The notes beneath the pieces are model-generated. The model worked only from the letters and a program-made list of their open reading frames with translations. It had not been told where the DNA came from and searched no databases. Shown piece by piece: positions 205 to 36,594 of a DNA stretch of 37,923 nt. The DNA is from Chiloscyllium plagiosum (Eukaryota). The translations under genes were made by a program, and so were the position numbers. The stretch spans positions 4,838,122-4,876,044 of the forward strand of contig NC_057752.1 of assembly GCF_004010195.1 (NCBI RefSeq), in the 5' to 3' direction. How positions within the stretch are numbered: the first letter of the stretch is position 1; every line of letters starts with the position of its first letter.

Positions 205-333
205 TGATGATGAAGGGCTTTTGCCCGAAACGTCGATTTTGCCTGTCCTCGGATGCTGCCTGAACTGCTGTGCTCTTCCAGCACCACTGATCCAGAATCT
301 GGTTTCCAGCATCTGCAGTCATTGTTTTTACCT
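205..333 (+). mobile_element. PLE pseudo-LTR 3' unit with clipped hammerhead ribozyme core
   Basis: (a)TGATGA-A-GGGC-TTTT-GCCC-GAAAC-GTC at 207-234 (C3 replaced at the junction), followed by ggatgctgcctgaactgctg...cagcatctgcagtcattgtttttacc. Near-identical to 32401-32526. Confidence 0.85.
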
Positions 334-344
334 CTTTGATCTAA

Positions 345-560
345 TACTCCAATCCCATTATAATAAAGACTAATGCAGAATTTACTTTCCTAATTGTTTG
401 CTGTACCAGCACATCAGCTTCTGTGATGACAATACCCAGTTGCTCCTGAAAACAAACATTTCCCAGATTCTCACCATATTTTTAAATATCTGCTTTTTAA
501 GTGGACAGCTTGACACTTATTCACATTATTGTTCATTTCCCAGGTCCTTGCCCAACTGCA
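345..560 (-). mobile_element. Degenerate CR1 LINE RT fragment
   Basis: Minus strand SWARTWEMNNNVNKCQAVH resembles the CR1 WAxxWQMxFNxxKCxVxH motif. Confidence 0.55.
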
Positions 561-879
561 AGCTTTTGGGTCGCCTTTAAAAGCAAAGACCTCAGCACAG
601 ATACTAGCAGATTAAAAGTCCAGATGAAAAATGCAGAAATACTGCATGTCTTCTTTAAACTGACTATTATTTGTAAGGCAAATTCCTCCTTTCAATTGCA
701 TGTACTTTTCTCAGTGTACAGTACAGCATCAGATAGAACTGTATGCATGTCCTGTATGCATATCCCTTGTCTGACAAAACACACTAGAAAACTATAAGCC
801 CAAGTTGGGGAAGGGGGAGACAATATGAAGACACAGTTGCTTCAGCCCAACATTACAGATTCAGAGGAAAATTGACCTG

Positions 880-1135
880 ACATATTAACTATGTTTCTCG
901 CTCTGTAGATGCTGCCAGATTTGCTGTGTATTTCCAGGGTTTGCTGCTTACGTTCCAATTTTTCTAATGGCTGAGCGGACAAATGGACCACTTTGTAGCG
1001 TTGACTTGAATCATAAAAACACTGACTTGAAGCATTAACCCTGTTTCTGCCTTCACAAGTAGTGCTTGGCCTGCTTATCATTTCCACATTTTCTGTTTTT
1101 ATTTCAGATCTCCAGGATGTGTTATTTCACTTTTA
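880..1135 (+). mobile_element. Two degenerate PLE-pLTR-related short repeats
   Basis: gatgctgccagatttgctgtgtatttccag and ttctgtttttatttcagatctccag resemble the pLTR tails seen elsewhere in the window. Confidence 0.5.
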
Positions 1136-1284
1136 CAACTATCTTCAATGTCACTGAGCTGGGGAGAAACAAGTCAGAATTCTCTCTTGATTACTATCCA
1201 GTGACTCCATCCTGCCCAGCTGGAAGATGAGTACCCTTTGTGGTTAAAAAGCCTTCCCATACACCCTGGTTAATGAGCACTTAC

Positions 1285-1393
1285 AGGAGATGCTGGAGAG
1301 TAGCCAGCAACCATTGAACCAAACCTTCGTCCGCATGAGTCAGGATGTGTCTGGAATGTAACAAGATCATTTGCATTTGCTGCAAGCTCTGTC
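1285..1393 (-). CDS. Candidate internal exon of an unidentified host gene (109 nt)
   Basis: Acceptor tttctgttcgatcacAG, donor CCT|GTAAGT. Open as (M)TELAANANDLVTFQTHPDSCGRRFGSMVAGYSPASP; phase-compatible with 2707-2832. No homology recognised. Confidence 0.33.
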
Positions 1394-2004
1394 CTGTGAT
1401 CGAACAGAAATATATTTAATTGGATTTCAGAGCCCAGCAAATCCACAACGGAGATGACACCACAATTCCTAAAAATATCAACTAAATTAATACTTTCCTT
1501 CAAGTCTTAAAATGATTGAAGTAACATTTTGAGACCTATTTTAAAATAGTGTTAAGGACCGTCTGTCACTTTATTTGGAAAACACAAATGCAGCTTTGAT
1601 GAAGGCAAATGTCTGAATGAGGAAATACTGGCTCCATTCAAATCCACTCATTATACAAAGAGCTACCTGAATTGCTGTTGGCTTCAATAGTGTCTTAATA
1701 ATATTGCACTTTTATCAAAGTGATTGAGGTTTCTGCTCACCGCCCCAATTTCCTTTTAGAGTACTAGCGGGCAATAATCAATATATCTCAGAATGTATTT
1801 CAGCATTATCAACCCAGATGTGCACATGCAAATCCAATTCACTATCAAGCAATTCGAGCATTGCTTTTAATGCTGGCCAAATATGATGAGAGACAATGTA
1901 TGTTGGCCCTGCCAGCAACACACCCACTTCAATGAATAAATAGTAGGACTTCTCAAAAGCCTTGGTAACCCTGTAAACAACCCTCTACTGCCCCCACCCA
2001 CTGC

Positions 2005-2690
2005 CATTATCATCACAAGCAGTCCCTCACAGACCAGGATGACTCTTCCACTCTCAGGGTGAGTCCGTAAGTGACTGTACAGTGATGTGGCTACAACAGG
2101 CTCTGGTACACTTGTGGTGGTTGTGGGAAGGAGTGGGTGGGACGGTGTGGCAGCAGGTTCCTTTCTCTGTTTTCTCCGGGCATCTGTTTTTTCTCAACAG
2201 CAAGTCTCAAGGTGTTCGATGCCTTCCTGGATGCTGTCCATCCACTGTGGATGGTCTTGGGCTAGTGATTCCCAGGAGTCAATGGGAATGTTGCACCTCG
2301 CTAATGAGACCTTGAGGGTATCCCTGAAGCACCTCCTCTGTCCACCTGGGGCTTGCCTGTCATTTCAGAGCTGGGAGGAGAGCACCTGCTCGGGGAGTCT
2401 AATGTCGGTCATAGGGACACCGTACCCAGCCCATCGTATCCGATCAAGGTGGTGGTGGGGTTGGGTGGTCAGTGCCTTGATGCTGGGGATGGTTGAGGAC
2501 GCTGGTATTGGTGCATCTGTGTTGGTGTGACTGCTTCAGCACCTTGAGGTCTTTGCTGTAGACAGTCCAAGTCTCTGAGCCATATAGAAGGGTGAGACCC
2601 ACCACAGCTCGGTAAGCCATGGCCAAGGACGGAGTGACTCTCATCAAAGACCCACCACCACATGCTGGAAATATGGAACACACTAACTGC
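2005..2690 (-). mobile_element. RTE-clade LINE, 3' fragment
   Basis: Minus strand YRAVVGLTLLYGSETWTVYSKDLKVLKQ (LLYGSETW is an RTE hallmark), followed by frameshifted RLPEQVLSSQL..APGGQRRCFRDTLKVSL. Confidence 0.85.
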
Positions 2691-2706
2691 AGTGGGAATT
2701 ACATAC

Positions 2707-2832
2707 ATTTTGTTGACCGATATGTTGTGTAATTTTTGTGCCTGAGAGTTTAGTGCTGGCAAAAATTTCAGTTCAGCACTCAGTAACTGCAGGTGTCCCA
2801 GGTCAGTACAGCTGAGCGTAAGCTGCTGTACC
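2707..2832 (-). CDS. Candidate internal exon of an unidentified host gene (126 nt)
   Basis: Strong acceptor (T-run then AAG), donor AAT|GTATGT. One open frame only: VQQLTLSCTDLGHLQLLSAELKFLPALNSQAQKLHNISVNK(M). Lies in non-repeat sequence. Confidence 0.38.
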
Positions 2833-3554
2833 CTTAAAAAAAAAAGGACTGGCATTGCCCTTCTTTATACCAGCTCAGTATGCAGGAGATCTTTTCACTT
2901 TGATGCTCCTATATTTTGGATTGTAGGGGTTTGACACGATGCAATGGTTTCCCATATTTGTGTTGATCCCTCACCCCAATGGAAGAATTATTTTAGCTCT
3001 GTGAAATTGTGGGGAGTTACACAACATGACTTAAATAAAGTTTCAATTGGAAAAACGCCTCAAGAGAGGACGCATGAGAGGCACTTTTGTATTGTGAGCA
3101 GACTAAGGAGACTTTCAACCATCGGTTCTGGCTGGATTTATGCCCTAGTTACAAAGGTAAAAGGCCAAAGTTTAATCTGCAATGTCACATGCAGCTCTTT
3201 CAAAGATAGCAGATTAATCAATCTATTGTATGTTTATAAGTTCAAAGGGATAAAATTAGAATAATCTTATTTGCCAGTCATAGTCCCTTGTTTTCAAATT
3301 TTGACTGATCTATTTTTTTAAACCTCACTTGCATTACTATGTTTTATTTGAAAAAAAAATGTTTGTCTTTAAATTGATAACTTTGTCAGCCCATGCAATC
3401 ACTTGAAATGTCACAAAGGTTTGCCTCTGCTACACCCATGGAATAAATAACTGGTGTAATCTGTAGAGCACAGACACAATCACTAAGTGTCCCCACACTT
3501 AATTGTTTGCTACATCTGCCTCCTCCATCCAACTTCCACAATTACCCCTGGTAT

Positions 3555-3945
3555 CTACATGGAGAGACTGCAGTTGATTTCCTTAGAGCTGTAAAGGCTA
3601 AAAAGAGATTTCATCAAGGTGTTTTAAATCATCAAGAGTTTAGATAAATTAAGATAATAGAAACTGTTTGCCATGGCTGAAGGTTTGACAACCAGACAAC
3701 AAATAATTTAAGGAGCTTGGTAAATGTACCTGAGGTCACATGAAGTAAAAAGCTTTTTTTAAAACTGCAGTCAGTGGTTAGGATTTGGAATACACAGTGA
3801 TTGATATGATTTCAATTGTAGATTCCAAGAGGAATAGCATAAATACTTGAAAAAGAAAAGAAATATAGGGATATGGGGAAAGAGCAGGAAAGTGGGACCA
3901 ACTTTGAAGGGCCAAATGGCCTCCTTCTGTGCCGTACCATTGTAT
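3555..3945 (+). mobile_element. Degenerate CR1 LINE 3' end
   Basis: ..LKRDFIKVFxIIKSLDK.. and the 3' UTR ending gggccaaatggcctccttctgtgccgta. Confidence 0.7.
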
Positions 3946-4263
3946 GTTTGACATGTCAAGTCAGTTCTGTTCCAAATCATAACAACTGAAAGATGGATTT
4001 TGCTTAAACCCAATTCACTTCCAGCTGAAAATAAGCTATAGTTGGAGAAGGGTGAATCACTCTAGCTGCTTGTTATGCTACTACTGATCAGTTATTCATT
4101 ATCTTGCTCAATAGTAACACTTGATCTCCTAGAGAAGGCAAAGACAATAGGCATAATTGATTTTCCTCATTGCAGAAGTTTCTTCTATTGATTGTGGAAT
4201 AACATTGGTAAAGATGATGGAAGTAGCAGTGAGTTGATTTATAGAATATCCTACATTCAAGCT

Positions 4264-4593
4264 GGGCTAGCACAGTGCCTCAGTGGTTAGCACTGCTGCC
4301 TCAGTACCAGGGACGGGGTTTGATTTCACCCTTGGGTGACTGTCTGTGTGGAGGTTGCATTTCTCCCTTGTCTGTGTGGGTTTCCTGCCACAGTCCAAAG
4401 ATGTACAGGTTAGGTGGATTGGTCACGTTAAATTGCCCATAATGTTCAAGGATATGCAGGCTAGGTGGGTTAGCTATTGGAAATGTAGAGTTACAGGGAC
4501 AGGGTGGAGTGGGTCTGGGTGGGATGGTGTTCGGAGGGTCAGTGTGGATTGGATGGGCTAAATGGCCAACTTCCACACTGTAGGGATTCTATG
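4264..4593 (+). mobile_element. HE1-like tRNA-derived V-SINE
   Basis: tRNA-like head (cagtggttagcactgctgcctca), V-domain (gtgggtttcc..cacagtccaaagatgt.caggttaggtggattgg), CR1-like tail (ccacactgtagggattctatga). Confidence 0.9.
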
Positions 4594-4796
4594 AAGTTAC
4601 TCACTATTTCATCCAGGCTATGCCAGTTGTTATGCCTATCACCTTGTGGATGTGAAAAAAAAAATAATTGGGGCAAAAATACTGCGGGAAAGCAAAATAA
4701 AAACAAACTGGGGTGCCAGCTTATTTACAAATCATGGTCTGGGAATCCCTGGTCACCTTCATGTTTTTTCTCCAACTCTATTTGTTAAGTATTGTC

Positions 4797-5449
4797 TTTT
4801 TTTATAATATTTTTATTAAGAAAAAATAGATTTTTAAATATTACAGCAAATACAAAACAATGCAATTCAAAACAGTACAAAACTAAACCCAAATAATAAA
4901 AACAAATTCCCCAACCCACCCTCCTATATGAATGTATAAACATATATAGAGAAGTATAAAATTTAAAAAAAAACCTAAATTAGCTATTTAACTAAATAAA
5001 TAAATACCTAACAACAAACAAATAAATAGTAATAACTCAGCCCAGCCAAACAAAACACTCATACATTCACAGTTCCTCCTCCCTGGATATTGGACTCATA
5101 AAACACAATCATTACGGCTATATAAAAGCCCTTGTTAGTGTGGCAGATAAATCTGTGTCCAGGTATTTCAAAAAGGGTTGCCATGTCTTGTAAAAATTCT
5201 CAGTTTTGTGGTGTACCATATTTGTGAGAAAATCCAAGGGAATATGCTCCATAACAATCTTCCGCCAACCCGACAGGCCTGGGGGTTTTCTGATATCCAA
5301 CCTAGCAAGATATTCTTCCTTGCACATAACGTAAGAATATTGAAAAGTTTTTTCTTATGCATGTCTGCAGGAAATACAATGGGTAGGCCCAAAAGCAGAG
5401 AATTAGGGTCCTTCTCCACCCCTACACCTAAAATCCTCTCCATTGCACC
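4797..5449 (-). mobile_element. 5'-truncated L1-clade LINE with poly(A) and 14-bp TSD
   Basis: ORF2 C-terminus ..ARKNILLGWISENP/PGLSGWRKIV..FYKTWQPFLKYL (one frameshift), 3' UTR, AATAAA and poly(A) near 4797-4816. TSD TGTTAAGTATTGTC at 4783-4796 and 5450-5463. Confidence 0.9.
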
Positions 5450-7150: not shown

Positions 7151-7204
7151 ACAAATGAGTGGCAAATGTGGCCGCTTGATTGGCGCCCCAACACCTATCT
7201 TAAA

Positions 7205-7500: not shown

Positions 7501-7503
7501 CAA

Positions 7504-8304: not shown

Positions 8305-8468
8305 AGCAAATTACTGCAGATGCCGGAATCTGTACTGAAAACAAGAAATGCCAGCAATCAGTGGGTCAGGCAGCATCCATGGAGAGAGCAAGTTAACATT
8401 TCAACTCAAAACATTAGCTTGCTTTCTGTCCTGACCCGCTGTGATCTCCAGCATATCTTGTTTTCAAA
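8305..8468. mobile_element. Degenerate PLE-pLTR-derived inverted repeat
   Basis: tgaaaacaagaaatgc..gggtcaggcagcatc..gcaagttaacattt is mirrored by aaacattagcttgc..cctgacccgc..gcatatcttgttttca. Confidence 0.6.
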
Positions 8469-8860: not shown

Positions 8861-10049
8861 TTTGGGCCTCAGGCACTGCTCAGTTCGTCACATCCCTATC
8901 GCTCACCTCCTAACAATCTTTATCAATCAAGACTCATACCTAACATTCATATGCTACACCTCCCCCTCCCCCCACATATAGCAAGCCTCAAACCCACAGC
9001 TCTCAGGCACTGCCAGTAATTCACCCATCTCTTGCAGGAAATGGTTGCACATAACTGGAGACAGCAGAAACTAACAGAAAGGGGAATACCATGCTTTCAT
9101 AACCTGATTACCACGGAGGGTCAGGGCTTACTGTCATTAGAGCAGCCATTTCTGAAGTTATGGTGAGCAGCAGGGCTGAGAACTGGTAAGATAATGGGGG
9201 GGGTTCTTCTTGTACAAGGTACTGTCAATGGTTCTGAAAGAGTCAATGTTGAAGTTGCATTAGCTCCACCCAATCTGATAATGTCTTCGGGGACAGACTC
9301 GGACAGTCTCACGTGAGATCTCATTGGAGACAGATGTATCACCTCTGGTTCCCAATAGTTCTAATTCTGCCGATCTAGTTAATGTTATTTGCACCTATTG
9401 GTATCGTGCAATAAACTACACATTGTTACGCAAATCAAATGGCTCTTCCTGTTAAAGACTCAATGATTTATCCTCTGCCACTGATCATTAGACAGGCAAT
9501 TTGACTCCACATAGTGAGGTACAGCGAGGATTGGAATGCATTACCTTGGGTATTCTGATTTAGGAAGTTTCCATTTTCTTTCGTAAGTTACTGTTAACCA
9601 TTAGTTTACATTTTTGTTACAGTGCCCCAGCAGGGACTATCTGCCATTGTTGGTATTTCTGACTGGAAGGGTAGAGGGAACTTTATTCTGTATCTAGCTG
9701 CATGCTGTATCTGTCTCAGATAAGGACAGTATTGAGGTAGCTTCATTTTCAGTATAAAAGAGAAGACGGAACACTAATCTGTTCCTAACCCCATGCTGTC
9801 CTGGGAGTATTTAATAGAGACCACGTTGAGAAAGCCTTACTTCCATTTTAAGAGAGTAGAGAACTTTACTCTATCTAACTGCTTGCTGTCCCTGTGCTGG
9901 GAGTATTTGGTATTTGATGGGGACAGTGCAGAGGTAGCTTTACTCTGTATCTAATCCCTGTGCTGTCCCTGTCCTGGGAGTATTTGATGGGGGACAGTGA
10001 AGACAGAGCTTTACTCTGTATCTAACCCCATGCTGTCCCTGTTCTGAGA

Positions 10050-10282
10050 CAAAGTTAAAATCACCCAACGCCAGGTAGCTGTTTGTTCAATATATCATTT
10101 CACCTGCATGGCACTGTAATCTTTTGCTATAAATTGTGACTTATGATCCTGCTGCATAGCTACCTGATGAAGGAGCAGTGCTCTGAAAGCTAGTGCTTCC
10201 AAATAAACCTGTTTGACTATAACCTGGTGTTGTGTAATGTTTAAACTTTGTCCACCCCAGTCCAACACCGGCTCCTCCACAA
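10050..10282 (+). mobile_element. Non-coding PLE pLTR unit (family B) with short 5' inversion and TSD
   Basis: 5' gacaaagttaaaatcacccaacgccaggt is inverted relative to acctggtgttgtgtaatgtttaaactttgtc (10222-10252); ~29-nt tail. TSD CCTGT(T/C)CTGAGA at 10038-10049 and 10283-10294. Confidence 0.8.
10161..10195 (+). ncRNA. Minimal type I hammerhead ribozyme (family B)
   Basis: tac-CTGATGA-A-GGAGC-agt-GCTCT-GAAA-GCTA-gtg; palindromic AGCT in place of stem III; predicted cleavage after A10192. Confidence 0.78.
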
Positions 10283-10857
10283 CCTGTCCTGAGAGTGTTT
10301 GCTGGGGACAGTGTAGAGGCAGTTTTACTTTCAGTTTAAAAAGAGGGTGTGCTGAGCACCACAGAGGCTGGGGTGCATCATCACTCTGGAGAGTATGCTA
10401 TTTTGATTTGTTAAATTTCCATTTACCATATTTAGATTATGTTGACCATTTGGTTTGTATTTTAGTTCCAGTGCCCCACTGATTAACCCAATTATGGTTT
10501 CATTTGAAAAGAGTGGGGAAAAAAAAGAAGAGGATCTGGTGGGCACTGTAGAGGCTGGGGTGCATCGTCACCACAGACAATGTTATTTTGAATTAGAAAG
10601 TTTCTGTTCATGTTTTACAAGTTTCTGTTAACCATTTGGTTGTGTTTTTGGCATAGTGCCAGGGGCTGTATAACTACTTGTAAATGATTTCACTTCAAAA
10701 GAGTAGACAAGGAGGATTTTTTTGATAAGTTTCTGTTCCAAGTCAGTAAATTTCTAATGGAGATTTTGTCCTACAGAGCCCCACCAGATCTAACCTGATG
10801 CAATTTTCTTTTTAAAAGAATGGAAGACTGGTGGCTGTGAACTATGCAATCACATGT

Positions 10858-11580: not shown

Positions 11581-11585
11581 ACTCT

Positions 11586-15159: not shown

Positions 15160-15445
15160 AAGAGACAAAAACTCAAAAATTGCTGGAAAAGCTTGGCAGG
15201 TCTGGCAGTATCTGTGGAGAATCAAAGTTAACATTTCAGGTTGAGTGACTCTTCCCTTAGCCACTTTAAAGAACTGTAGAAAGCACCAAGTACTTATAGA
15301 ATCCAAACATAGCTGAAAGGAGACATTAAGTCAAAGTTTTTAATTTTTTCGAGTCATCAGGACAGGGACATAAGAAATCAAAGTTGGAAATGGTACATTG
15401 ATTTCTACAGCATGAGAAGAGGGTACTGATTGGTTAGGCCATTGC
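15160..15445 (-). mobile_element. Degenerate PLE pLTR-related fragments
   Basis: gctggaaaagcttggcaggtctggcagtatctgtggaga (pLTR-like); the reverse complement near 15330-15365 retains gtcCTGATGA with a decayed stem II/GAAA. Confidence 0.55.
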
Positions 15446-16584: not shown

Positions 16585-16945
16585 TCTCTGCATATCGTCC
16601 CTGTGTCTAAGTGGGTTTTCTCCGGGTGCTACGGTTTCCAAAGATGTGCAGGTTAGGGTGGACTGGCCATGCTAAATTACCCCATAGTGCCCAGGGATGT
16701 GCAAGTTAGGGTGGATTGGCCGTGATAAATTGTCCCATAGTGTCCAGAGATGTGCAGGTTAGGGTGGATTGGCCGTGATAAATTGCCCCATTGTGTCCAG
16801 GATGTGTAGGATAGGTGGATTAGCCATGGGAAATACGGGGATAGGGTAAGGGTTGGGTCTGAGTGGGTTGCTCTTTGGAAAGTTGGTCTAAGACTTGATG
16901 GGCCGAATGGCCACTTTCCACACTGTGGAGATTCTGTGATTCTAT
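16585..16945 (+). mobile_element. 5'-truncated HE1-like V-SINE with internal 53-bp tandem amplification
   Basis: gatgtgcaggttagggtggattggcc unit starts at 16643, 16696, 16749 and 16801; CR1-like tail. Confidence 0.9.
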
Positions 16946-18655: not shown

Positions 18656-18910
18656 TTTTACAGGAGGACTGAATCATTTACAGAGCCTTAGGTGAGATTT
18701 GCATACACCATTTGCTTCCTGGAGCCACTTTTAGACTCTGGCTGAACCTGCTGGGAGAGGGTGGAACACCAGAACCTTGGAGCTAGTCTGCTCCAAGTCC
18801 CACAAAGACAAAAATATAGAATAACTGCCAAAATCAGATATCTCCAGGCAACTATTTGGACAGCTTAGCAACTACATTGAAGTGCTGTCAGACAGACAGC
18901 AAAATAGAAG

Positions 18911-20243
18911 GGACGGAAAGGTTTCCCGTGGGAGACTGGTTAGCAAGGTTAGATCTCATGGAATACAGGGAGAACTAGCCATTTGGATACAGAACTGGCT
19001 CAAAGGTAGAAGACAGAGGGTGGTGGTGGAGGGTTGTTTTTCAGACTGGAGGCCTGTGAACAGTGGAGTGCCACAAGGATCGGTGCTGGACCCTCTACTT
19101 TTTGTAATTTACATAAATGATTTAGATGTGAGCTTAAGAGGTACCGTTAGTAAATTTGCAGATGACACCAAAGTTGGAGGTGTAGTGGACAGCAAAGAAG
19201 GTTACCTCAGATTACAACAGAATCTTGACCAGATGGGCCAATGGGCTGAGAAATGGCAGATGGAGTTTAATTTAGATAAATGTGAGGTGCTGCATTCTGG
19301 GAAAGCAAATCTTAGCAGGACTTATGCACTTAATGGTAAGGTCCTAGGGAGTGTTGCTGAACAAAGAGACCTTGGAGTGCAGGCTCATAGCTCCTTGAAA
19401 GTGGAGTCGCAGGTAGATAGGATAGTGAAGGCGGCGTTTGGTACGCTTTCTTTTATTGGTCAGAGTATCGAGTACAGGAGTTGAGAGGTCATGTTGCATC
19501 TGAACAGGACATTGGTTCAGCCACTTTTGGAATATTATGTGCAATTCTGGTCTCCTTCCTTTCAGAAGGATGTTGTGAAATTTGAAAGAGTTCAGAAAAG
19601 ACTTACAATGGATGTTGCCAGGGTTGGAGAATTTGAGCTATTAGGGAGAAGCTGAACTGGCTGGGGCTGTTTTCAGAGGAGCAGGAAAATTGACGTTTCG
19701 GGCAGGAGCACTTCATCAGGCTCCTGCCCAAAACATCGATTTTCCTGATCCTCCAATGCTGCCTGACCTGCTGTGCTTTTTCAGCACCACTCTAATCTTG
19801 ACTCTGATCTCCAGCATCTGCAGTCCTCACTTTCACCTAGGGCTGTTTTCCCTGGAGTGGAGGCTGAGGGGTGACCTTATAGAGGTTTATAAAATCATGA
19901 GGGGCATGGATAGAATAAATAGACAAAGTCTTTTCCCTGGGGTGGGGGAGTCCAGAACTAGAGGGCATAGGTTTAAGGTGAGAGGAGAAAGATATAACAG
20001 AGACCTAAGGGGCAACAATTTTCATGCAGAGGGTGGTGCGTGTGTGGAATGAGCTGCCAGAGGAAGTGGTGGAGGCTGGTACAATTACAGCATTTAAAAA
20101 GGCATCTGGATGGGTATAGAACAGGAAGAGTTTGGAGGGATATGGACCAGGTGCTGGCAGGTGGGACTAAATTGGGTTGGGATTTCTGGTCGCATAGATG
20201 AGTTGAACCAAAGGGTCTGTTTGCGTGCTCTACAGCTCTATGA
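18911..20243 (+). mobile_element. 5'-truncated CR1 LINE (RT C-half plus 3' UTR)
   Basis: SGVPQGSVLDPLLFVIYINDL, SKFADDTK, WAEKWQMEFNLDKCEVLH, RLRGDLIEVYKIMRG; interrupted at 19675-19839. Confidence 0.95.
19675..19839. mobile_element. Non-coding PLE fold-back unit nested in CR1, with TSD
   Basis: TSD GGGCTGTTTTC at 19664-19674 and 19840-19850. Minus-strand CTGATGA-A-GTGC-tcct-GCCC-GAAACGTC at 19692-19719; pLTR tail on the plus strand. Confidence 0.85.
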
Positions 20244-21448: not shown

Positions 21449-22723
21449 AGAGACAAAAAAGTACAGATGTTGGAATCCAAAGTAGACAGGCAGGAGGCTG
21501 GAAGAACACAGCAAGCCAGACAGCATCGACATATCAGATATAACCCTTCTTCAGGACTGAGGGTAGGTGTGGGGGAGCTACAAACCTACAGACTCCCATA
21601 ACTACCTGGACTACATCTCCTCCCACCCAGTATCCTGCAAGAACACCATCCCACTCTCCCAGTTCCTCCACCTCTGCCACATCTGCTAAGACATTCCACT
21701 CGCGAGCATCCCAGATGTCCACCTATTTCAAACAACGTGCTTTTCCTCCCTTTGTCATCCAGACAGCCCTTCACTGCACCACCTCCATTCCCCACCCACT
21801 GCTCTAAACTGCCCCACACACAATAAAGACAGGGTCCCCCTTCTCCTCACCTACCATCCCACCAGTCTCTGCATCCAACGCATCATTCTTAAACACTTCT
21901 GCCAACTCCAACTAGACCACACCACCAAGAACATCTTTTCCTCCTCACCCCTGTCTGCCTTCCACAAGGACCGTTTCCTTTGACATTCCTTGGTTCATGC
22001 CACCCCACCACTGAACCCCCAGGTACCTTCCCCTGCAACCAGAAAAGATGCAAAACTTGCTGGTACATCACCCCTCTCCCTTCATTTCCATTCAGGGCCC
22101 CAAACAGTCCTTCTAGGTGAGACAGAGGTTCACCTGCCTCTCTTCCAGCACAGTTTACTGTATCCGATGTTCCCGATGTGGTCTTCTCTACATCGGGGAG
22201 ACCAAATATAAACTGAGGGAACGGCTCACTGAACATCTCAGCCGGGCCCACAGGGGCCAACTGGACCTCCCAGTCACCACCCATTTTAATTCCCCCTTCC
22301 CACTCCCTTTCCGACATGACCATCCTTGACCTCCTCCATTGCCAAAACAAACCACAGCATCTTTTGGCGGAATAACACCTCACCTTCCGTCTGGGCGGCC
22401 TACAGCCTGGAGGACTCAACATTGAGTATCCCAGTTTCAAATAACTTCCCTCCCCATCCCGACTCCCTTCCCAGCCCCTCCTCCTCATTCCCACTGCTCC
22501 CTTCCACCAACTGGATTCATTCCTCCCATTGACCAACCAGGTCGTACCCTCTACCTGTCTTCACCTATCCCCACCTCACCACCCTGCCCCCGCCTACCCC
22601 TTTATCTGCAGCTCCCCATACACCCACCCTGAGTCCTGAAGAAGGGTTACACCCAAAACGTCGACTTCTCCACCTCATGGTGCTGCCTGGCTTGCTGTGT
22701 TCTTCCAGCCTCTTGCTTGTCTA
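21449..22723 (+). mobile_element. Penelope-like element (Neptune-type) with RT thumb, GIY-YIG endonuclease and inverted pLTRs
   Basis: YKPTDSHNYLDYISSHPVSCKNTIPLSQFL and FTCLSSSTVYCIRCSRCGLLYIGETKYKLRERLTEHL. pLTR 22610-22723 is inverted at 21449-21578. TSD CTTTTA(T/C)CCTTGATT at 21434-21448 and 22724-22738. Confidence 0.93.
22632..22666 (+). ncRNA. Hammerhead ribozyme motif in the Penelope pLTR (probably inactivated)
   Basis: agtc-CTGAAGA-A-GGGT-tac-ACCC-aAAAC-GTC-gact; catalytic G12 reads A (CpG-type change). Confidence 0.72.
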
Positions 22724-23098
22724 CTTTTACCCTTGATTCCCTTACAGATGAAAAATCTGTCCATCTCAGCCTTGAATATACTGAATGATCCAGCTTCAGC
22801 AGACCCTTGTGGTAAAAACTGCCACAGGTTCCCTTCGGAGCAGAAATGTCTTCTCCTCTGTCTTAAATGAGTAATCCTTTATTCTGAGGTTATACCCTCT
22901 GGTCCTATATACTCTCTCAAGGGGAAAACAACCTTTCACCATCAACCCAGTCCAGTTTGTATGTTCAATAAAGTTCCCTCTTATTCTTCTAAATTCCGAA
23001 TACACCATTCTACTCTACATGAAATAAATGATATTTTTAAACAATAAAGCTTTCATTTAATGTTGGACTGGCACTTGCACATTCAGATAAATCCTGTG

Positions 23099-23346
23099 CT
23101 GAAAATGTGTTGCTGGAAAAGCGCAGCAGGTCAGGCAGCATCCAGGGAACAGGAGAATCGACGTTTCGGGCATAAGCCCTTCTTCAGGAATCAGGAGAAT
23201 CGACGTTTCGGGCATAAGCCCTTCTTTCGGGCTTATGCCCGAAACGTCGATTCTCCTGTTCCCTGGATGCTGCCTGACCTGCTGCGCTTTTCCAGCAACA
23301 CATTTTCAGCTCTGATCTCCAGCATCTGCAGACCTCACTTTCTCCT
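23099..23346. mobile_element. Non-coding PLE fold-back element (family A) with 15-bp TSD
   Basis: Perfect 81-bp inverted arms 23099-23179 / 23229-23309, ~37-nt tail. TSD CAGATAAATCCTGTG at 23084-23098 and 23347-23361. Confidence 0.93.
23160..23187 (-). ncRNA. Minimal type I hammerhead ribozyme (family A), intact core
   Basis: Reverse complement CTGAAGA-A-GGGC-TTAT-GCCC-GAAAC-GTC. Confidence 0.8.
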
Positions 23347-23394
23347 CAGATAAATCCTGTGTTGAGCTCTTGCCCTACAGGAGGTCTAACACAA

Positions 23395-26475: not shown

Positions 26476-27118
26476 AAGAAAAACACCTTTGACCACAAGT
26501 CCATTAGGAAGTGGTCAGCACGTAGTGTCCTAGAGACCCTTCGGGAAAAGGAGAGGGCGGATCCTATCGAGCGGTTCCCTGAGCAGACTGTCAAAGCCAT
26601 TTGGCAGAATGCCTCATCGCCAGAACTTTCCAACAAGCACCAAGACATGGCTTGGCTGGTGGTGAGAAGGGCTCTGCCTGTGAGATCCTTTATGCACGCC
26701 CGGACTCTCAGCCGCACCGCACGCTGCCCTCGAAGCGGCTGCAGGGGGGACGAGACTGTCACACACCTCCTTCTGGAATGTGCCTATGCAGGGGAAGTCT
26801 GGAGAGGAATGTCGGGTCCAGGACTACGTGTTGAGGGACGCGCTGAAGCTTGGGGCAGCTGCCGCCAAGGCGTGGTGGGGAAAGACCACTGTGTAACATC
26901 TGCCTGTCTAACGAAGAACAGGGGGCCCATGCAGTCATTTGGGCTCTGCTGACGCCTCAGCTAATTATATGGGCATATGATTGAAAAATGTACAGACCTG
27001 TATAAAAATGATAAATTCTGATCTCTGTATGTAAATGTTGACATATGTATGGCATGACCAATTGTACAGACCATCAAATTATTTTATGAATAAAGTATAT
27101 TTTTTGAAATAAAAAAAA
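26476..27118 (+). mobile_element. 5'-truncated Tx1-like (L1 group) LINE with poly(A) and 11-bp TSD
   Basis: WQNASSPELSNKHQDMAWLVVRRALPVR..CPRSGCRGDETVTHLLLEC (CCHC knuckle), AATAAA and poly(A). TSD GTCAAGGATAG at 26465-26475 and 27119-27129; internal deletion near 26810. Confidence 0.92.
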
Positions 27119-27134
27119 GTCAAGGATAGGGGTA

Positions 27135-27500: not shown

Positions 27501-28524
27501 TTAGCCAGGATTGATATCTCTGGGCTGTAGTTGATAGGACTGAAAGACTTTGCACTCTTTCTTTCTGGAAGATAATCCACAACAGCACTTAAGTGACGAA
27601 GGGAGGACACGGGAGATATTTATTTTGGATAAAGTATTGTTTGAAGTGAAATTGCTCAGCTGTATATCTGCATTAGGCCAGTAGGGGACAGTCAGCTCTC
27701 ACTGACTCACACCCACACGTTGGCACCAGACATTTTGTGATGCGGGCTGTATCAGGGAAAGATGCAGGAGATTTGAATCCCAAACCCTTTTTGTTTAATA
27801 AGTAACCGAAGTACGATATTTACATACCTTAAAAGCAGGCTTGCTATAATTGCCTGTGGACAAACATCAACATCATAAACAGAGGCAAGCACAGCATGAG
27901 CAACTCTTATTCTAACCTCAAAATGGTGGAATCCACCCCACCCATATATCTTTGTTCCTCGCCTACCATCTAGAAGCTTCTAAAACCCGAAAGATGTCAT
28001 GTCATCAGTACTTCCTGATTGAGTTTTAACAATAGATTCTTCACTTTAAATAAAATCCTTACCATTCAAAACATACCGCACAGCTAAGCGTACATAATAA
28101 CTCTTAAGTCCTTGCTGAAAATTTGCTTCCCAAATCGCTTGACAAGACTTCACACACCCAAAACAAAACTCGTACTCCCGCTTTCCAGCCCTAATCTTTT
28201 CCCTTTCTACTCTTTAAGATACTGACACAAGCTAGACTTATTTTCACCAGAGGAAGCCATTCAGCCCCTCAAGGCTGTTCCAGCATTTAATTATAATCAA
28301 GACTGATTCATCCTTTAATTGCAAATACCCATCTTGGTTCCAAAACATTGAACACAATCAGTCAATCAAAGTCTGCACCACAAAGGCACCCAGGTATCCA
28401 ATTTCTTGCTACATTTGAACCCATGTTGCTTGATGTGTTAAATTGATATCTGTGTGGAATCAATGCCCTTCATTTACCTCCAATTGGTCTGTGTTTTTCT
28501 AAGGTACAAAAATTCTAAGATCCA

Positions 28525-28750
28525 GGGACTCTTTTGGTGTGGTGGTAGTGTCCCTAATTCTGACCCAGGAAGCCCAGATTCAAGTTCCACCTGCTCTAGA
28601 GGGGTGTTATAACATATCAGAACAGGTTATGATAAAATATCTAGACCCAAACCCACCAAGGAGCTCTTGTGGTACAATAGTAGCATCTGGGTTTGAGTCC
28701 TAGCTGCTCCTGAGGTGTGTTCCAACACATGTGAACAGATTAAGATAACT
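28525..28750 (+). repeat. Two tandem diverged tRNA-like-headed units
   Basis: ctcttttggtgtggtggtag..ttcaagttccacctgctc..gaacaggtt and ctcttgtggtacaatagtag..gtttgagtcctagctgctcc..gaacagatt, ~135 bp apart. Confidence 0.55.
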
Positions 28751-28796
28751 AAACCTTACCACAATGTGTATCACTTTTCAGTTGTTTCTCAGTCTT

Positions 28797-28834
28797 GATT
28801 CCTGAAGAAGGGCTTATGCCCGAAACGTCGATTC
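28797..28834 (+). ncRNA. Minimal type I hammerhead ribozyme (family A), intact core
   Basis: gattc-CTGAAGA(28802-08)-A-GGGC-TTAT-GCCC-GAAAC-GTC(28827-29)-gattc. Confidence 0.82.
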
Positions 28835-28891
28835 TCCTGTTCCCTGGATGCTGCCTGACCTGCTGCACTTTTCCAGCAACACATTTCCAGC
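28799..28891 (+). mobile_element. Solo ~93-bp PLE pLTR unit with 12-bp TSD
   Basis: TSD TCTCAGTCTTGA at 28787-28798 and 28892-28903; sequence matches the right arm of 23099-23346. Confidence 0.88.
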
Positions 28892-29319
28892 TCTCAGTCT
28901 TGACACCTTTATAGAATGGGAACGAGTTCAGATTGCCACTATCTTTTGTGTGAGAGGGACAGAAGGACCACAATCTTGGGATGTATTTCAGAATGAGACA
29001 GTGCCTTCAAGAACCAATTAGGAGAACAGGGCAATTTAAAATAAAAACAAGGTTTTTATTTTATAATCAATGATCCTTAGCCTAATGTTTTCATGTGATT
29101 TCATTTTAATGATCTTGATATGATCTTCATTTTGAAACTTAAACCTGAATCCTGGTCTCAATGCTGGAATTAAAGGGTATGGGCCACAGACTAGTCATTA
29201 TCTCACTGAATGGCCTATTCCTGTTCCTATGTTTCAAGGTGTTGCCAATATATATTGCTACATTTCATAGAGGAAGGTTGATGGCTTAGTGGTATTGTTG
29301 CTGGACTACTAATCCAGAA

Positions 29320-29500
29320 AGGAGAAAGTGAGGACTGCAGATGCTGGAGATCAGAGCTTAAAAATGCGTTGCTGGAAAAGCGCAGCAGGTCAGGCAGCAT
29401 TCAAGGAGCAGGAGAATCGACGTTTCGGGCATACGTTTCCTGCTCCTCGGATGCTGCCTGACCTGTTGTGCTTTTCTAGCACCACTCTAATCTAGACTCT
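29320..29500. mobile_element. PLE fold-back unit with deleted ribozyme centre
   Basis: aggagaaagtgaggactgcagatgctgg..tcgacgtttcgggcat joined to ttcctgctcctcggatgctgcctgacctg; no CTGANGA retained. Confidence 0.8.
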
Positions 29501-29532
29501 TAACTTTTAAGGATAAGCAATAAATGCTGTCT

Positions 29533-29746
29533 GAAAATGTGTTGCTGGAACAGCGCAGCAGGTCAGGCAGCATCCAGGGAACAGGAGAATCGACGTTTCT
29601 GGCATAAGCCCTTCTGATTCCTGAGGAAGGGCTTATGCCCGAAATGTCGATTCTCCTGTTCCCTGGATGCTGCCTGACCTGCTGCGCTTTTCCAGCAACA
29701 CATTTTCAGCTCTGATCTCCAGCATCTGCAGACCTCACTTTCTCCT
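29533..29746. mobile_element. Non-coding PLE fold-back element (family A) with 15-bp TSD and hammerhead core
   Basis: TSD CAATAAATGCTGTCT at 29518-29532 and 29747-29761; arms ~29531-29615 / 29625-29709; CTGAGGA-A-GGGC-TTAT-GCCC-GAAAT-GTC at 29621-29648. Confidence 0.92.
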
Positions 29747-31279
29747 CAATAAATGCTGTCTAGCCAGCAACGCTCATGAATAATTTTTTTTTTATCCAGC
29801 TGGAGGTCTTATCACAGGCTGTGGTACACTGCAGAATGGTGTCCATGTAAAGATTTCCTACTACACACTTCTATACTTCTGAGTGAAGAGTAAAGATGTC
29901 CAGTGTAGATCACAGATTTAAAATGAAATATTTCTGAAATAAATGGGAGCACAGTTTCCGGATAATTATTAACAATTCATCATAAACGACACCTAAAGTA
30001 GATTTTGAGATCAAATGTGTTCTGGGCAGACCTGTCCCTGTTCCCAGATGACTGCTGAAATACATCAGATTTCTTACAATTCAATTGCTTGGCGCCTGTC
30101 ACCGCATGTGGGAGGTGAATCCTTCCACAATGTCAGTCCGTGTCTCTGGATGTTAGTGAGGTTGATCCCCAAGATGCTGTATTGTCCTTGCGCCATCTAA
30201 ACCATCCCACACATCTAAGAGAGGCTGAATACGGCGCGTCATTGCTCAACAAAAATGCAACCTACACATGCAATTGTGTAACGACGTGAAAACAATAAGA
30301 TTCTCTGCTCTCCATTCGCCTCCCCAGTCAGGTGACAGCTGGGATTTAATTTTTATACTGCCTACAGCAGTGCACGAGGCTTGCGAGACGACAGGCTTCC
30401 AATGTTAATTCATCCTCGTTGCCCAGACGGATTTGTCAGCTGAAATAACCCCATAGCCACCAACATTCTGTGTCTAAAAGTAGCTATTACACTTTGAATG
30501 CAAGAACACCAAATGTCACTTATGCACACAGACCTCCCACACACACACGTTGTGTTTCGCCCAGTTCCTTAGTAAATTCAGAGACTGACTTGAGAGCTCT
30601 GAAAATGACTTCATAAAGTAACAATAAAACCTCTGCAGCTGACTTGCTGCATTCTGGTTCAGCAGCGGAACTGAGAGTTTCAGGTATTAAGGGAAACTGA
30701 GCCAGCGGCTTTTACTGCTGCTGTTCGGCATTGTTGCACGGATTACCACACCGCTTCCTCCAATTTCCTTATCGCGACAGATTTGCAAGTCTGCTATCAC
30801 GAGAAAGGAGGATACGTTTGGTCGCATGAATGCTGGAGTTGCATAGAGACTGATGTATTCCAGTTGTTGTTTTCAAGTGACCGTGGCAATACACAACCAA
30901 ACATGAATTTTAACCGCAGCATACTTTAGCTTGCTGGCTTTAGGCCTCTCACAACCTATCAAAAGATGATAAAAGGACCCAGCCGGTTACTGTAACCGCT
31001 GCTTGTGCAGTTGGCATGTGGTCTGCTGACTGGGAATTGAATCAAAATTCTAATTCTCAAGTCGCGTCAGTGCACAGAGTACAGGGCAACTGTTCAATCA
31101 GCTGCTCCAAGAACCTGCTGAATCTCTCATTCTCGCATGTTGTAACTGAAACAAAGCTGAATCTGAACCCAGGCTACGGCTCCATTCATTGTAAAGCTGG
31201 TACTGTTGTGTGAACTTAGTATGGTGAGCCTCCTTTGTAGTACTTATGCACTAGCAATGAGGGGATCGAAAATTACAAT

Positions 31280-31455
31280 GATCTTTCGTGCCCATCTGAG
31301 AGATTAGGCTAAATCTAACATCTCATTTGAAAGATAGCAGTTCCAACAGTGCAGCACTCCCTCAGTTAATTGTGTACTCAAGCCTCGAGACTGAAGTTTA
31401 AACCTAGGATCTTCTAACTGAGGTGAAAGTGTTACCTTCTCAGTCGCAGCCATTT
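31280..31455 (-). mobile_element. DeuSINE-like relic
   Basis: catctcatttgaaagatagcagttccaacagtgcagcactccctcagt, homologous to 27370-27420. Confidence 0.6.
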
Positions 31456-31659
31456 GCTTTATGCACAATAGACTCAGAAATGGCATTGACCCACATTAAA
31501 GATTGTTCTAACATAGAAGGGGAGGAGAGTGCAATTAATAAAAACAAAGTTCTATGAAATCCGATATAGAAACAGAAAAGACAGGTGAGACAGCAGGTTC
31601 GGGAGCATCTGTGGAGAGAGGAACATGGTCCATGGACAGAACTTTCTGCTTCAGAGGTG

Positions 31660-32372
31660 ATGAGTCTGGAGGCAGAAAGAGCACTTTATCAGGCCAGGGT
31701 GGGGTTGTACCCAAACCTCACTGCTTTGTTGGCTGTTCTGGTACAGCCAAAGTCCCCTGGCTGACCTTCCTGCCTGATTAATTACCACTTAAGGGCATCA
31801 GTCTGCTGTAGGCCTTTGCAATGCAATGTGCCCGACAGATTGGCCCTTGTGGGCAACTTGCCAGCTGTGGGGTGAGTCCCTCCATTAATGGCATCCAGTG
31901 CCTGATTGAAGGATTGGACATCAGGTGGGGCATATCTGTTGGCAGCCACCCTGCCCTTGCTTTGAACACCCCCTCCAACGTCCCTGCACCATGAATGCCC
32001 CCTCCATAACATCACTTCCTATTGTCCTGGGTCCTCCACAAGTCTGGCACTTGGCTCTTCTGCCAGCAGCCATGGCCACCTCCATGGCATTGTCGAATAC
32101 ATTGAGAAATACAGGCCTCTGACCGGCTGGGTAGGACTACCAAACCAGGAAGCTGATACCAGGAAAAGGCCCTACTGAAGAGGGAGATGGCATGGGGCAG
32201 GGTGACACTTGGCACACGGACACACAAGATGGCTGCTGAGCCATCAGTTGGCCAACTTGACACACAAGATGGCCACCAGATCACAATATGGAGAGAGACA
32301 GCAGAGCAGATACAAACACTGCCTGGGGCCACCAGAATGCCAGCACAATGCACTCACAACGCAGTTGATTAG
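31660..32372 (+). mobile_element. Probable PIF/Harbinger relic with Myb/SANT-like fragment
   Basis: ITIWRETAEQIQTLPGATRMPAQC matches the W..IA..V......R...QC pattern; boundaries approximate. Confidence 0.45.
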
Positions 32373-32392
32373 TTTAAGGAAGGTGGGGGAGA

Positions 32393-32526
32393 GCATGTTC
32401 CTGATGAAGGGCTTTTGCCCGAAACGTCGATTTTGCTGCTCGTCAGATGCTGCCTGAATTGCTGTGCTCTTCCAGCACCACTGATCCAGAATCTGGTTTC
32501 CAGCATCTGCAGTCATTGTTTTTACC
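32393..32526 (+). mobile_element. PLE pLTR unit
   Basis: Near-identical to 208-332. Confidence 0.85.
32398..32431 (+). ncRNA. Minimal type I hammerhead ribozyme, intact core
   Basis: ttc-CTGATGA(32401-07)-A-GGGC-TTTT-GCCC-GAAAC-GTC(32426-28)-ga. Confidence 0.82.
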
Positions 32527-32529
32527 AGA

Positions 32530-33002
32530 TGAGTAACAGGTCCAGCCAACACCTCTCATAGAAATGCTAACAGCTTGATACAGACTCAATACAAAGTGCT
32601 AATAGCCAGGACTGCAGTAATCCTCCTCCTCAGGAAGAGCGATTAATGCTCATTACTACAGCAATGGACATCCGCTCAGACATTGAAACTGACAACGACC
32701 ACATGGAAATTAACAAAGGTTGTGCTGAAACTGACAAAGACTGTATTGAAACTATCAACCATTCTGTAATGATTGCCATAAACAAACCATGTTACAAAGA
32801 CAATAATCTCATCACTGACCTATTGTATCACAAGAGGGATAAAAGTTTCTTGACATGTGCTCCAGGTCGAGAGAAGACTTACAACTGACCACTGTGCTGT
32901 TGGTGTCTTTCTCTCTCCCGGAGCTCCAGTATTTCCTTGTACAATAAACTCTGTCATTGAACCCCGACTCTGAATCCAAGGCTGGTGATTTTCCCCACAA
33001 CA
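32530..33002 (+). mobile_element. Possible solo LTR (ERV/Gypsy-like)
   Basis: Short internal repeats (gaaactgacaa), TATA-like gataaaag at ~32838, AATAAA at 32943, terminal ttttccccacaaCA; 5' boundary and TSD not established. Confidence 0.4.
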
Positions 33003-33042
33003 CTACCACTCACTGACTGCCATGTGGTCCAGGGGACTTCCC

Positions 33043-34192
33043 TTCTTTTTAAATTTCAAAAATATACTTTACTCATAAAAATACCTTTATATACACACGT
33101 AGTGCCTAAGGCAATTCGGTTCTATACAGTAGCATGTGGAGCAACAAACAAACCAAAGACATTTCTTACTTGTATAAGATTATATTTACATGCATCTGAG
33201 GCACTGGGAGAATCCGATAACTGAACAGACCCCCATTTGCCTTCAGCAGAAAGCCTTCAGACAGTGGTCTTTCCCCACTGCGCCTTGGCGGTAGCTGGCC
33301 CAGGCTTTAGTGTGTCCCTCAGCACGTAGGCCTGGACCTTGGAATGTGCCAGTCTGCAACACCCAGCCAAGGGTCAACTCCTTGTTCTGGAAGGCCAACA
33401 AGGTTCAGGCAGATCAAAGAGAATCTTTCACTGAGTTAATGGTCCTCCAGACGCAGACGATGTTTTTCTCAGTGTGCTTCCTGGGGAACAGCCCGTAGAG
33501 CACAGAGTCCTGAGTCACGGCGCGGCTCAGGACAAACCTCAACAGAAACCACTGCATCTTTCTCTGGACTTCCTTTGTGAAGGCACCTTCCAGCAGGAGA
33601 TGTGTGACAGTCTCTACCCTGCTTCAAGGACAGCCTACAGTCGTGCAGACAGACCAGGCATTCAGGAAGGATCTGACAGGTAGTGCCCTTATCACCACCA
33701 ACCAAGCGATGTCTTGGTGCTTGTTGGAAAGTCCTGGTGATGCGGCATTCTGACAAATGACATTGACAGTCTGCTCAGGGAACCATATGACAGGATCTAC
33801 ACTCTCCTTTTCCTGCAGGGTCTCAAGGATGCCACAGGCTGACCAATTCCTGATGGAGTTATGGTCAAATTGCTTTTCTTTACAAATTTCTCCACAAAGG
33901 ACAGGTGATTTGGAAGGGTCCAACTACTTGGAGCTTTCCACAGCAACAAGGCCAGTCCCACCTTTCACATCACTGGACCAAGGAGAATTTCAGTACAGAG
34001 TGACACTTATTGTTTCCCTGCCGAGGGTCTCTACACAACTTGATGCAAATGCACACAAAGGTGGCCATCAGAATGAAGGTGGAGTTGGGTACGTCTTTGC
34101 CCCCTCTACCCCCTTATCCAGACATTTGTACATGGTGTGCCTGCAGACGCAATCCAGCTTAGACCTCAGGATGAAGTGGAAGATGGCTTGGG
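33043..34192 (-). mobile_element. Tx1-like LINE 3' portion (older relative of 26476-27118)
   Basis: FDHNSIRNWSACGILETLQEKESVDPVIWFPEQTVNVICQNAASPGLSNKHQDIAWLVVIRALPVRSF; 3' end atatactttactcataaaa. Confidence 0.9.
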
Positions 34193-34590
34193 TCATAGAG
34201 TCTTAGAGTCCTGCAGCACAGAGACAAGCCCTTTGGGCCAAATTGGTCCATGCCGACCAAAATGTCCATCCACTCTAACCCCACTCCCTGCACTTGGCCC
34301 ATATCCTTCCAAACCTTTCCTTTCCATGTACTTGTCCAAATGCCTTTTAAATGTTGTCAATGTATCCACCTCAACCACTTCTGCAGGCAGCTCATTCCAT
34401 GTGCATACCACCCTCTGTGTAAAAAAGTTATCCCTTGGGTTCACTATTATTCTTTCCCCTCTAACCTTAAACTGATGCCCTCTAGTCCTTGATTCCCCAA
34501 CACTGGGAAAAAGACTGAGTGCATTCACCCTATCCGTGCCTCTCATGATCTTATACACTTCTATCAGGTCCCCCCTCAGTCTTGCCCTAT
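34193..34590 (-). mobile_element. CR1 LINE 3' end
   Basis: RLRGDLIEVYKIMRGTDRVNALSLFPSVGESRTRGHQFKV..FFTQRVVCTWNELP. Confidence 0.92.
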
Positions 34591-34664
34591 GATAGTAGTG
34601 TTGAAGAGGATAGTGTTGCCCTATGATAGAAGAGGAACACCTATACAAGGTATTCGCCAAAAAC

Positions 34665-34985
34665 GGTGAGAGTATGTTTCCCCTCAGGGGAGAGTCTAAC
34701 ACAAGAGGGCAGAATCTCCGCATAAAGGGGTGATAATTTAAAACTGACATAAGGAGGAATTTCTTCGTCTTTGGAACTTTTTGCCACAAAGAGCTATGGG
34801 GTTGATCCCCTTGTGTACATTTGAGGCTGAGACAGATAGATTGTTGGTTGTAGGGGAATTGTGGGTTTGGGGGAAAAGGCAGGCATGTGGGCATGAGGAA
34901 TGTCAGATTAGCCCTGATTCTATTGAATGGTGGAGCAAGCTCAACGAGTTGAACAGCCTATTTCTGTTTTTATTTCTTATGGTCT
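34665..34985 (+). mobile_element. CR1 LINE 3' end (older subfamily)
   Basis: MFPLRGESNTRGQNLRIKG..RRNFF and the 3' UTR tattgaatggtggagcaagctc. Confidence 0.75.
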
Positions 34986-35004
34986 TATCGATTCCAACAA
35001 TTTC

Positions 35005-35215
35005 CTAACATCACACGTTAATCTAACCGGAAGCGGCAGGGACAGACCACTATAAACATCGGAGGAAACATCAAAGAAGCGCTTCGCAGGAGGCTCCCAA
35101 GCACTGATGATGTCGCCTAGCCAGGGGACGAAACGTTTGCAACAAAAACTTCCAGCTCGGCGAACAGAACCACAACAACGAGCACCCGAGCTACAAATCT
35201 TCGCACAAACTTTGA
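35005..35215 (+). mobile_element. PLE pLTR unit (family C)
   Basis: CpG-rich unit with TATAAA at 35051 upstream of a hammerhead motif; unrelated in sequence to families A and B. Confidence 0.75.
35101..35140 (+). ncRNA. Minimal type I hammerhead ribozyme (family C)
   Basis: GCA-CTGATGA-T-GTCgCCT-agcc-AGGgGAC-GAAAC-GTT-TGC; stem I GCA/TGC, palindrome AACGTT. Confidence 0.8.
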
Positions 35216-35505: not shown

Positions 35506-35507
35506 AT

Positions 35508-36592: not shown

Positions 36593-36594
36593 GT

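Follow-up and report, generated by a model that had tools for sequence, protein, structure and literature searches.

Minimal hammerhead ribozymes (min-HHRs) have been described in the pseudo-long terminal repeats (pLTRs) of metazoan Penelope-like elements (PLEs) by Cervera and de la Pena (2014; PMC4209133), where a low activity in vitro is reported, and the PLE hammerheads of Lunse, Weinberg and Breaker, as summarised in a review (PMC6765202), have a palindromic, very short stem III and depend on dimers for cleavage. A hand count over Fig. S3 of the 2014 paper, setting aside 15 longer forms, gives 41 motifs with a two-nucleotide insert (29 CG, 5 GC, 5 UA, 1 AU and 1 CA), and CG families are recorded there alongside GC families in S. 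mansoni. The role of the PLE hammerhead in vivo is still called a mystery by reviews (PMC7761336). Here we analyse a stretch of 37,923 nucleotides from the shark Chiloscyllium plagiosum (contig NC_057752.1, positions 4,838,122 to 4,876,044), hereafter the window, in which a preliminary description had noted nine minimal hammerheads in three families, A, B and C, and we find that family A is the pLTR of a PLE.

The window motifs share with the min-HHRs of the 2014 paper the Type I form, the lack of a loop 3, the palindrome at 15.2-16.2, the extra base between positions 9 and 10.1, the G10.1-C11.1 pair and a short stem I, and in both cases the motifs are mostly single and dispersed or in opposite-strand pairs, with several families per genome. 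The combination of palindrome, extra base and multiple families per genome had therefore already been published in 2014, and the shark motifs are a very abundant new example of a kind already described, with many copies cut short or mutated. Table S1 and Fig. S3 of that paper hold no cartilaginous fish, and a literature search, with most subscription papers and bioRxiv supplements outside its coverage, found no paper on shark min-HHRs. It may be the scale that is unusual, at a rough 10^5-10^6 family-A copies compared with the ~4,000 in coelacanth and ~9,000 in Xenopus counted in the 2014 paper.

Family A corresponds to the pLTR of a PLE

Family A is tied directly to PLE open reading frames (ORFs). 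The insertion at 21462-22722 is a 5'-truncated PLE in which an inverted arm is followed by the C-terminal part of the reverse transcriptase (RT), a linker, a GIY-YIG endonuclease and then the hammerhead motif (Table 1). Its broken ORF gives a match to Pfam PF01541 (E 1.4e-5), 62% identity to protein P0001 and a tblastn match, and the CX4CX2C linker, in frame 3 of the remnant, is also present in P0001. At the edge of the window a minus-strand frame of 67 aa (2-202) shares 96% identity with P0004, an RVT_1-bearing protein of Chiloscyllium punctatum; the named matches to this frame are from sharks and rays, and its relatives carry RT plus GIY-YIG. The GIY-YIG remnant upstream of the motif at 22636 and the RT fragment beside that at 207 place family A in the location of a pLTR. 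Neptune/Nematis-type PLEs, as described by Craig et al. (2021; PMC8557442), likewise have a C-terminal GIY-YIG and a CX2-5CxxC linker, and judged from this linker motif the family-A ORF would be of Neptune/Nematis type. The insertion layout given by Craig et al., with strong 5' truncation, an adjacent inverted copy and an optional tail of 30-40 bp, is also that of family A.

A family-A profile built from seven window copies recovered 14 arms in eight insertions, together with older remnants. Exact target duplications of 8-16 bp flank five of the eight insertions, inverted arms are present in five of the eight, with an inverted ORF piece at 1-333 in addition, and a tail of 35-36 nt is carried by some arms only. 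The site of the 28802 insertion is empty in the related organism B (run X11), where a contig skips 28787-28891 with a 12-letter overlap (joint 28786-28892). Beyond the window, an A-like pattern with a free palindrome was scanned over metagenome contigs (6 of 64 parts, with counts inflated by related copies). A CG palindrome was carried by 89 of 121 matches, or by 39 of the 67 forms that are distinct in stem II; stem I reached at least 3 bp in 68 of 90 palindromic matches as against 6 of 31 others, and a PLE ORF was found at 15 of 119 loci, 13 of these on the same strand and upstream of the motif.

Older family-A-like remnants lie at 897-937, 8309-8460, 15180-15241 and 31590-31616, and those at 8402 and 15241 read GAAATGTT, as expected from CpG decay of the ACGU form. 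Two pairs of inverted arms, of 82 nt (100%) at 23098-23310 and 84 nt (96%) at 29531-29709, would form long hairpins in read-through RNA, and these would hide the motif.

Table 1. Hammerhead-bearing insertions and PLE coding remnants of the window (positions counted from its first letter)
Feature	Position	Strand	Description
PLE RT ORF fragment	2..208	-	inverted relative to the following family-A arm; extends beyond the window edge
Family-A arm	207..333	+	motif 207-234 without C3 and stem I (junction)
Family-B motif	10164..10192	+	core intact, palindrome AGCU, predicted site CUA, stem I 3 bp
Family-A insertion	19673..19838		two inverted arms, 11-bp target duplication; minus-strand motif 19719-19692 with core kept, stem II mismatch and G1.1>A
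Inverted 5' arm of ORF-bearing element	21462..21582	-	decayed motif at 21554
Broken PLE ORF remnant	21570..22440	+	RT C-terminal part, CX4CX2C linker, GIY-YIG endonuclease
Family-A motif	22636..22662	+	follows the GIY-YIG remnant by ~190 nt; G12>A; 5-bp stem I
Young family-A insertion	23099..23347		one plus arm and two minus arms, the latter in a 42-nt tandem; target duplication of 16 bp; intact minus-strand motif 23187-23160
Young single-arm family-A insertion	28799..28892	+	intact motif 28802-28829, 12-bp target duplication
Family-A insertion	29321..29497		two inverted arms, CUGANGA in neither
Family-A insertion	29531..29747		inverted arms, 15-bp target duplication; motif 29621-29648 with C15.2>U
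Family-A arm	32398..32527	+	motif 32401-32428, intact core, weak stem I (2 bp, then mismatch)
Family-C element (bounds approximate)	34990..35216	+	motif 35104-35137, palindrome ACGU, predicted site GUU
Second PLE GIY-YIG remnant	36652..36909	-	36% identity over 96 aa to P0001, E 3e-16

Motif anatomy and predicted pairing

The motifs are real minimal-hammerhead patterns heading short inserted repeats. A descriptor that required CUGANGA, 0-2 extra nucleotides, a stem II of at least 4 bp (at most one mismatch), GAAA-NN-U-H and a stem I of at least 2 bp, with the palindrome positions left free, matched the window six times (10164+, 23187-, 28802+, 29621+, 32401+ and 35104+), five of the six having a Watson-Crick palindrome, as against a mean of 0.0085 and a maximum of 1 match per window in 2000 dinucleotide shuffles. 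All nine of the motifs noted earlier are present, those given at 19692 and 23160 on the minus strand (these coordinates mark their low ends, and C3 is at 19719 and 23187, respectively), and only six of the nine pass the descriptor: the motif at 207, at an insertion junction, has A at C3 and no stem I, that at 22636 has G12>A, and in that at 19719 stem II contains a U-C mismatch and the closing pair of stem I is lost. The full core (CUGANGA ... GAAA ... UH) is kept in seven of the nine, the exceptions being 207 and 22636, and the G10.1-C11.1 pair in eight (G-U at 10164); stem I reaches at least 2 bp in seven and is lost at 207 and 19719. There is no loop 3, and the 15.2-16.2 palindrome is Watson-Crick in eight, with AUGU and one wobble at 29621. 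Just two motifs, 23187 and 28802, are without a clear lesion, and both carry a U-U mismatch in stem I. To the nine are added a tenth, decayed motif at 21554 (minus) and six family-A arms without the first core box; over all 14 family-A arms, four pass the descriptor.

Several readings of the preliminary description are borne out by this inventory, namely the extra base after A9, found in nine of nine motifs, the predicted cleavage sites GUC, CUA and GUU, and the assignment to PLE-type minimal hammerheads whose stem III is attainable only through the pairing of two copies. Its statement that stem II stays paired is right apart from the mismatch at 19719 and a G-G mismatch at 35104, and its division of family C as GA-AACGTT needs to be corrected to GAA-ACGT-T. 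Because A14 of family C is a core base, and is not paired with position 17, families A and C share the palindrome ACGU.

In an Rfam search of the window no hammerhead was matched, even at an E of 1, and the matches to miRNA families, all below the gathering score, are the inverted family-A arms. Relaxing the core by one mismatch added four unrelated matches (13724, 28008, 27348 and 7898), of which 28008 (minus), with CTGATGA, a 7-bp stem, GAAG-CT-T-C, one core mismatch and no palindrome, is probably due to chance. After the second GIY-YIG remnant there is no descriptor match, and sequence resembling a long interspersed nuclear element (LINE) is found there instead.

Pairing between families was modelled on the window copies as a double hammerhead, in which each core takes the cleavage strand of its partner. 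Two family-A motifs would form all four stem III pairs and 3-6 bp of stem I, A with C all four stem III pairs and 0 bp of stem I in both orientations, B with C two of four stem III pairs and again 0 bp of stem I in both orientations, and A with B two of four stem III pairs and 1-3 bp of stem I. Energies computed for A with C belong to folds lacking stem I and are disregarded here. The earlier proposal that the palindrome confers family-specific pairing is not supported by the pairing comparison, since a palindrome common to A and C cannot part them; stem I suffices to do so, because the A with C pair forms 0 bp of it. In the model, then, the palindrome only adds to the specificity of stem I, for family B.

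Families B and C are each present as a single copy in the window. The anatomy of its motif suggests that family B derives from a PLE, and the same is probable for family C, the layout of which mirrors that of PAc, a Poseidon element of Anolis (Frangieh et al. 2024; PMC11167929). In the account given of PAc the ORF begins at stem II, the cut falls 26 nt after the start codon and reverse transcription starts 111-118 nt in, in an AC-rich stretch; in family C the ATG lies at A9 and its frame stays open for at least 36 codons, running through an AC-rich tail, with the predicted cut 28 nt after the ATG and the end of the element ~106 nt in. Unlike PAc, family C is not accompanied by RT or endonuclease sequence in the window, and family A has no such open frame. 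Degenerate repeats of 70-90 nt surround the family-B motif (9662-10343), and a 53-nt tandem repeat in three copies lies at 16634 (16634-16801). LINE remnants with endonuclease, RVT_1 and zf-RVT domains occupy 18825-20126, 34193-37823, 26476-26949 and 33469-33870, the RVT_1 and endonuclease domains being probably CR1-like. Within these remnants, or in the gaps that separate them, lie the family-C element and one of the family-A insertions.

Decay, abundance and RNA

Variation within family A was taken from two DNA runs (X1 and X11, from two organisms) and from RNA, aligned to 28650-29050 at 80% likeness, with a change threshold of 4% and with incomplete counts for X1. The motif holds three CpGs, and C>T or G>A is seen at each of their six bases, at 5.7-14%: in X1 and X11 respectively the changes are C15.2>T at 8.9 and 8.1% and G16.2>A at 6.8 and 13.0% in the palindrome, C11.1>T at 8.5 and 13.1% and G12>A at 8.8 and 14.1% in the second CpG, and C17>T at 6.1 and 7.8% and G1.1>A at 5.7 and 6.6% in the third. 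By the same measure U4, A14 and A15.1 vary at 0.1-0.5% and the free N7 at 15 and 23%, and loop II is variable as well. No C>G or G>C at the centre of the palindrome, which would turn ACGT into AGCT, is among the changes listed above the threshold in either run. What had been read as covariation of the palindrome is a swap between unrelated families, and a single one (B, AGCT), since there are two palindrome types in three families; within family A only C>T and G>A at the CpG are among the changes listed. The family-wide variant shares indicate that the core is constant across subfamilies and that the CpGs, including that of the general base G12, are lost in copies, and we infer that the motif CpGs decay in inserted copies after methylation and deamination. 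The observed to expected ratio of CpG in the window is 0.27. Stem I has one compensatory change, with G-C at 2.3-1.3 in the motif at 22636 against U-U in young copies, and position 1.3 varies to A or C in the runs.

Six descriptor matches in 37.9 kb amount to 158 per Mb (Poisson 95% range 2.2-13.1 matches) in a window that had been picked for such motifs. Contig records on 28650-29050 number 60,353 in X1 and 41,150 in X11, nearly all on the 96-bp element, and their summed depth is 1-3 million times that of the single-copy flank; overlapping short contigs may inflate this depth up to ~31-fold, which sets a floor of ~4-7 x 10^4, and the depth serves as a bracket only, not as a copy number. A PLE expansion has been reported in whale shark introns (10.1101/443036). 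The very large ribozyme load proposed earlier is upheld as an abundance of the motif and not as a load of active ribozymes, given that four of 14 arms pass the descriptor and that in five of eight insertions an inverted arm would pair with the motif in read-through RNA.

RNA came from run X21, a poly(A) single-cell library of organism A of which ~2% was read, and which is a weak test of cleavage. The element drew 2,817 reads, which must come from other copies since the flanks of 28802 are nearly unread; 37 of them are at least 99% alike and 1,563 are under 90%. Both orientations are present, at ~960 versus 1,200-1,390 where the tail begins. At 28650-29050, X21 RNA has 8 A>G and 10 T>C places versus 2 and 4 in X1 DNA, and A>G at 28824, 28825 and 28858 reaches 10-17% in reads of one orientation and 2-5% in those of the opposite one, with less than 0.6% in DNA. 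The excess of A>G could reflect A-to-I editing of hairpins between inverted arms; a few highly expressed old copies would look alike, and strand-biased transversions are also present.

Explanations weighed and their meaning

We consider it highly probable that the family-A motifs head inserted PLE end pieces, with B and C likely belonging to other PLE lineages, the motif likely selected in active masters and the scattered copies likely decaying without function. In this cycle the endonuclease would nick the target and RT would start inside the RNA ~60-100 nt downstream of the hammerhead, by extension from what is reported for the anole element (PMC11167929). The products seen are arms of 95-130 bp with target duplications, an optional tail of 35 nt and often an inverted partner. 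Two motifs of a tandem master transcript are predicted to form a 4-bp stem III from their ACGU or AGCU and to swap stem I strands, leading to slow, probably protein-assisted cleavage, and after insertion the three motif CpGs would be methylated and then deaminate. Selection on the masters is suggested because N7 and loop II vary while U4, A14 and A15.1 hardly do. A number of results weigh against this account. Although a cleaved template would predict a start exactly at the predicted cut, 0 of the 14 family-A arms have one. Target duplications were looked for and not found at three of the eight family-A insertions or at B or C, no PLE ORF lies alongside B or C in the window, and the family-B pattern has 0 matches in the metagenome contigs. 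For each of the six homodimers the double-hammerhead fold is 3-23 kcal/mol less stable than the minimum, differences that accord with the low activity reported in vitro and with the need of the anole element for protein (PMC11167929). The variant shares from contigs are depth-weighted to young copies, and the 80% filter lowers the non-CpG rates. Finally, within the limits of its library, X21 has no step in depth at the predicted site (918/1098 reads at 28829 and 926/1121 at 28830) and no pile of ends there among the ends listed.

The pattern of 5' breakpoints is the most interesting, if provisional, lead. Twelve of the 14 family-A arms start between about -5 and +31 of C3, within the hammerhead footprint, and five of the seven arms with CUGANGA start 1-5 nt ahead of C3; among contigs, loose ends accumulate at 28798-28800 and at 28807, where the flanks are mostly unrelated (agreement 0.31-0.35), and joints with a strand switch run from 28798 to 28809/28810. 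Such ends would be expected if the motif were mainly a structural signal in the PLE cycle, a protein-bound fold or RNA dimer contact that provides an RT stop, template switch or template start, with cleavage secondary. We regard this as a tentative possibility, in keeping with the experiments reported for the anole PLE, in which catalytic mutants left in vitro insertion unaffected and no RNA ends were seen at the site (PMC11167929). However, the 28798 peak is partly built in because the reference copy begins at 28797-28799, a shared upstream consensus indicates that some copies run further upstream, any 5'-truncating element yields mostly short products, and the strict conservation of the catalytic residues points to selected chemistry. 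We find it doubtful that 10^5-10^6 PLE end pieces in this shark lineage, 10-100 times the published counts known to us, have 5' ends set by the hammerhead fold and not by the cut, the motif acting as an RNA dimer contact, assisted by protein, at which RT is stopped or redirected. Upstream cleavage as the origin of young copies starting with GATTC was discarded: the G is contributed by the target duplication at 28797 and by the tail at 23192, while depth at 28797 is ~2% of that at 28803.

The preferred reading, of PLE end pieces that decay once inserted, has further competitors. The preliminary description held that a covarying palindrome is selected for dimerisation of each family with itself only and that the dispersed copies make up a large load of active ribozymes, which the Watson-Crick palindromes of eight of the nine motifs, the two of four stem III pairs left to A with B, and the great abundance of family A in DNA and in RNA would fit. 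It is improbable nonetheless: ACGU is common to A and C, stem I alone blocks A with C and B with C and leaves 1-3 bp to A with B, the C>G or G>C change is absent at 4% from those listed, ten of the 14 arms fail the descriptor, and the RNA reads run in both orientations at similar depth across the site. Head-to-tail duplications of 33-42 nt (23150-23232, minus; contig joints from 28832 to 28797-28799, rare in contigs) put a cleavage strand just upstream of a core, and a 2026 preprint places tandem retrozymes in one chondrichthyan, so that tandem non-LTR (long terminal repeat) retrozymes spreading as circular RNAs might be considered. We think this very improbable, with copies that are dispersed, single or inverted, and with a sole tandem in which one unit is incomplete rather than both being complete. 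Nor is the 42-nt tandem supported as a ready active hammerhead, since its stem III pairs have a probability below 0.01 and the fold is 4.4 kcal/mol less stable than the minimum. An origin by chance in repetitive DNA could be argued from the shortness of the motif and from the four unrelated matches gained on relaxing the core, but with six matches observed for 0.0085 expected, in copies that are homologous and tied to PLE ORFs, chance is refuted for family A and its overall likelihood is negligible; B and C each rest on their one window copy.

The present work adds cartilaginous fishes as a taxon to the pattern published in 2014. If there truly are hundreds of thousands of copies, no richer source than sharks would exist for natural variants bearing on the in vivo role of the PLE hammerhead, and very many inverted pairs in introns would make a large source of double-stranded RNA. 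Should the hammerhead fold set the 5' ends, this would explain the short and inverted insertions, and the role of the hammerhead in PLEs would become testable from genome statistics alone.

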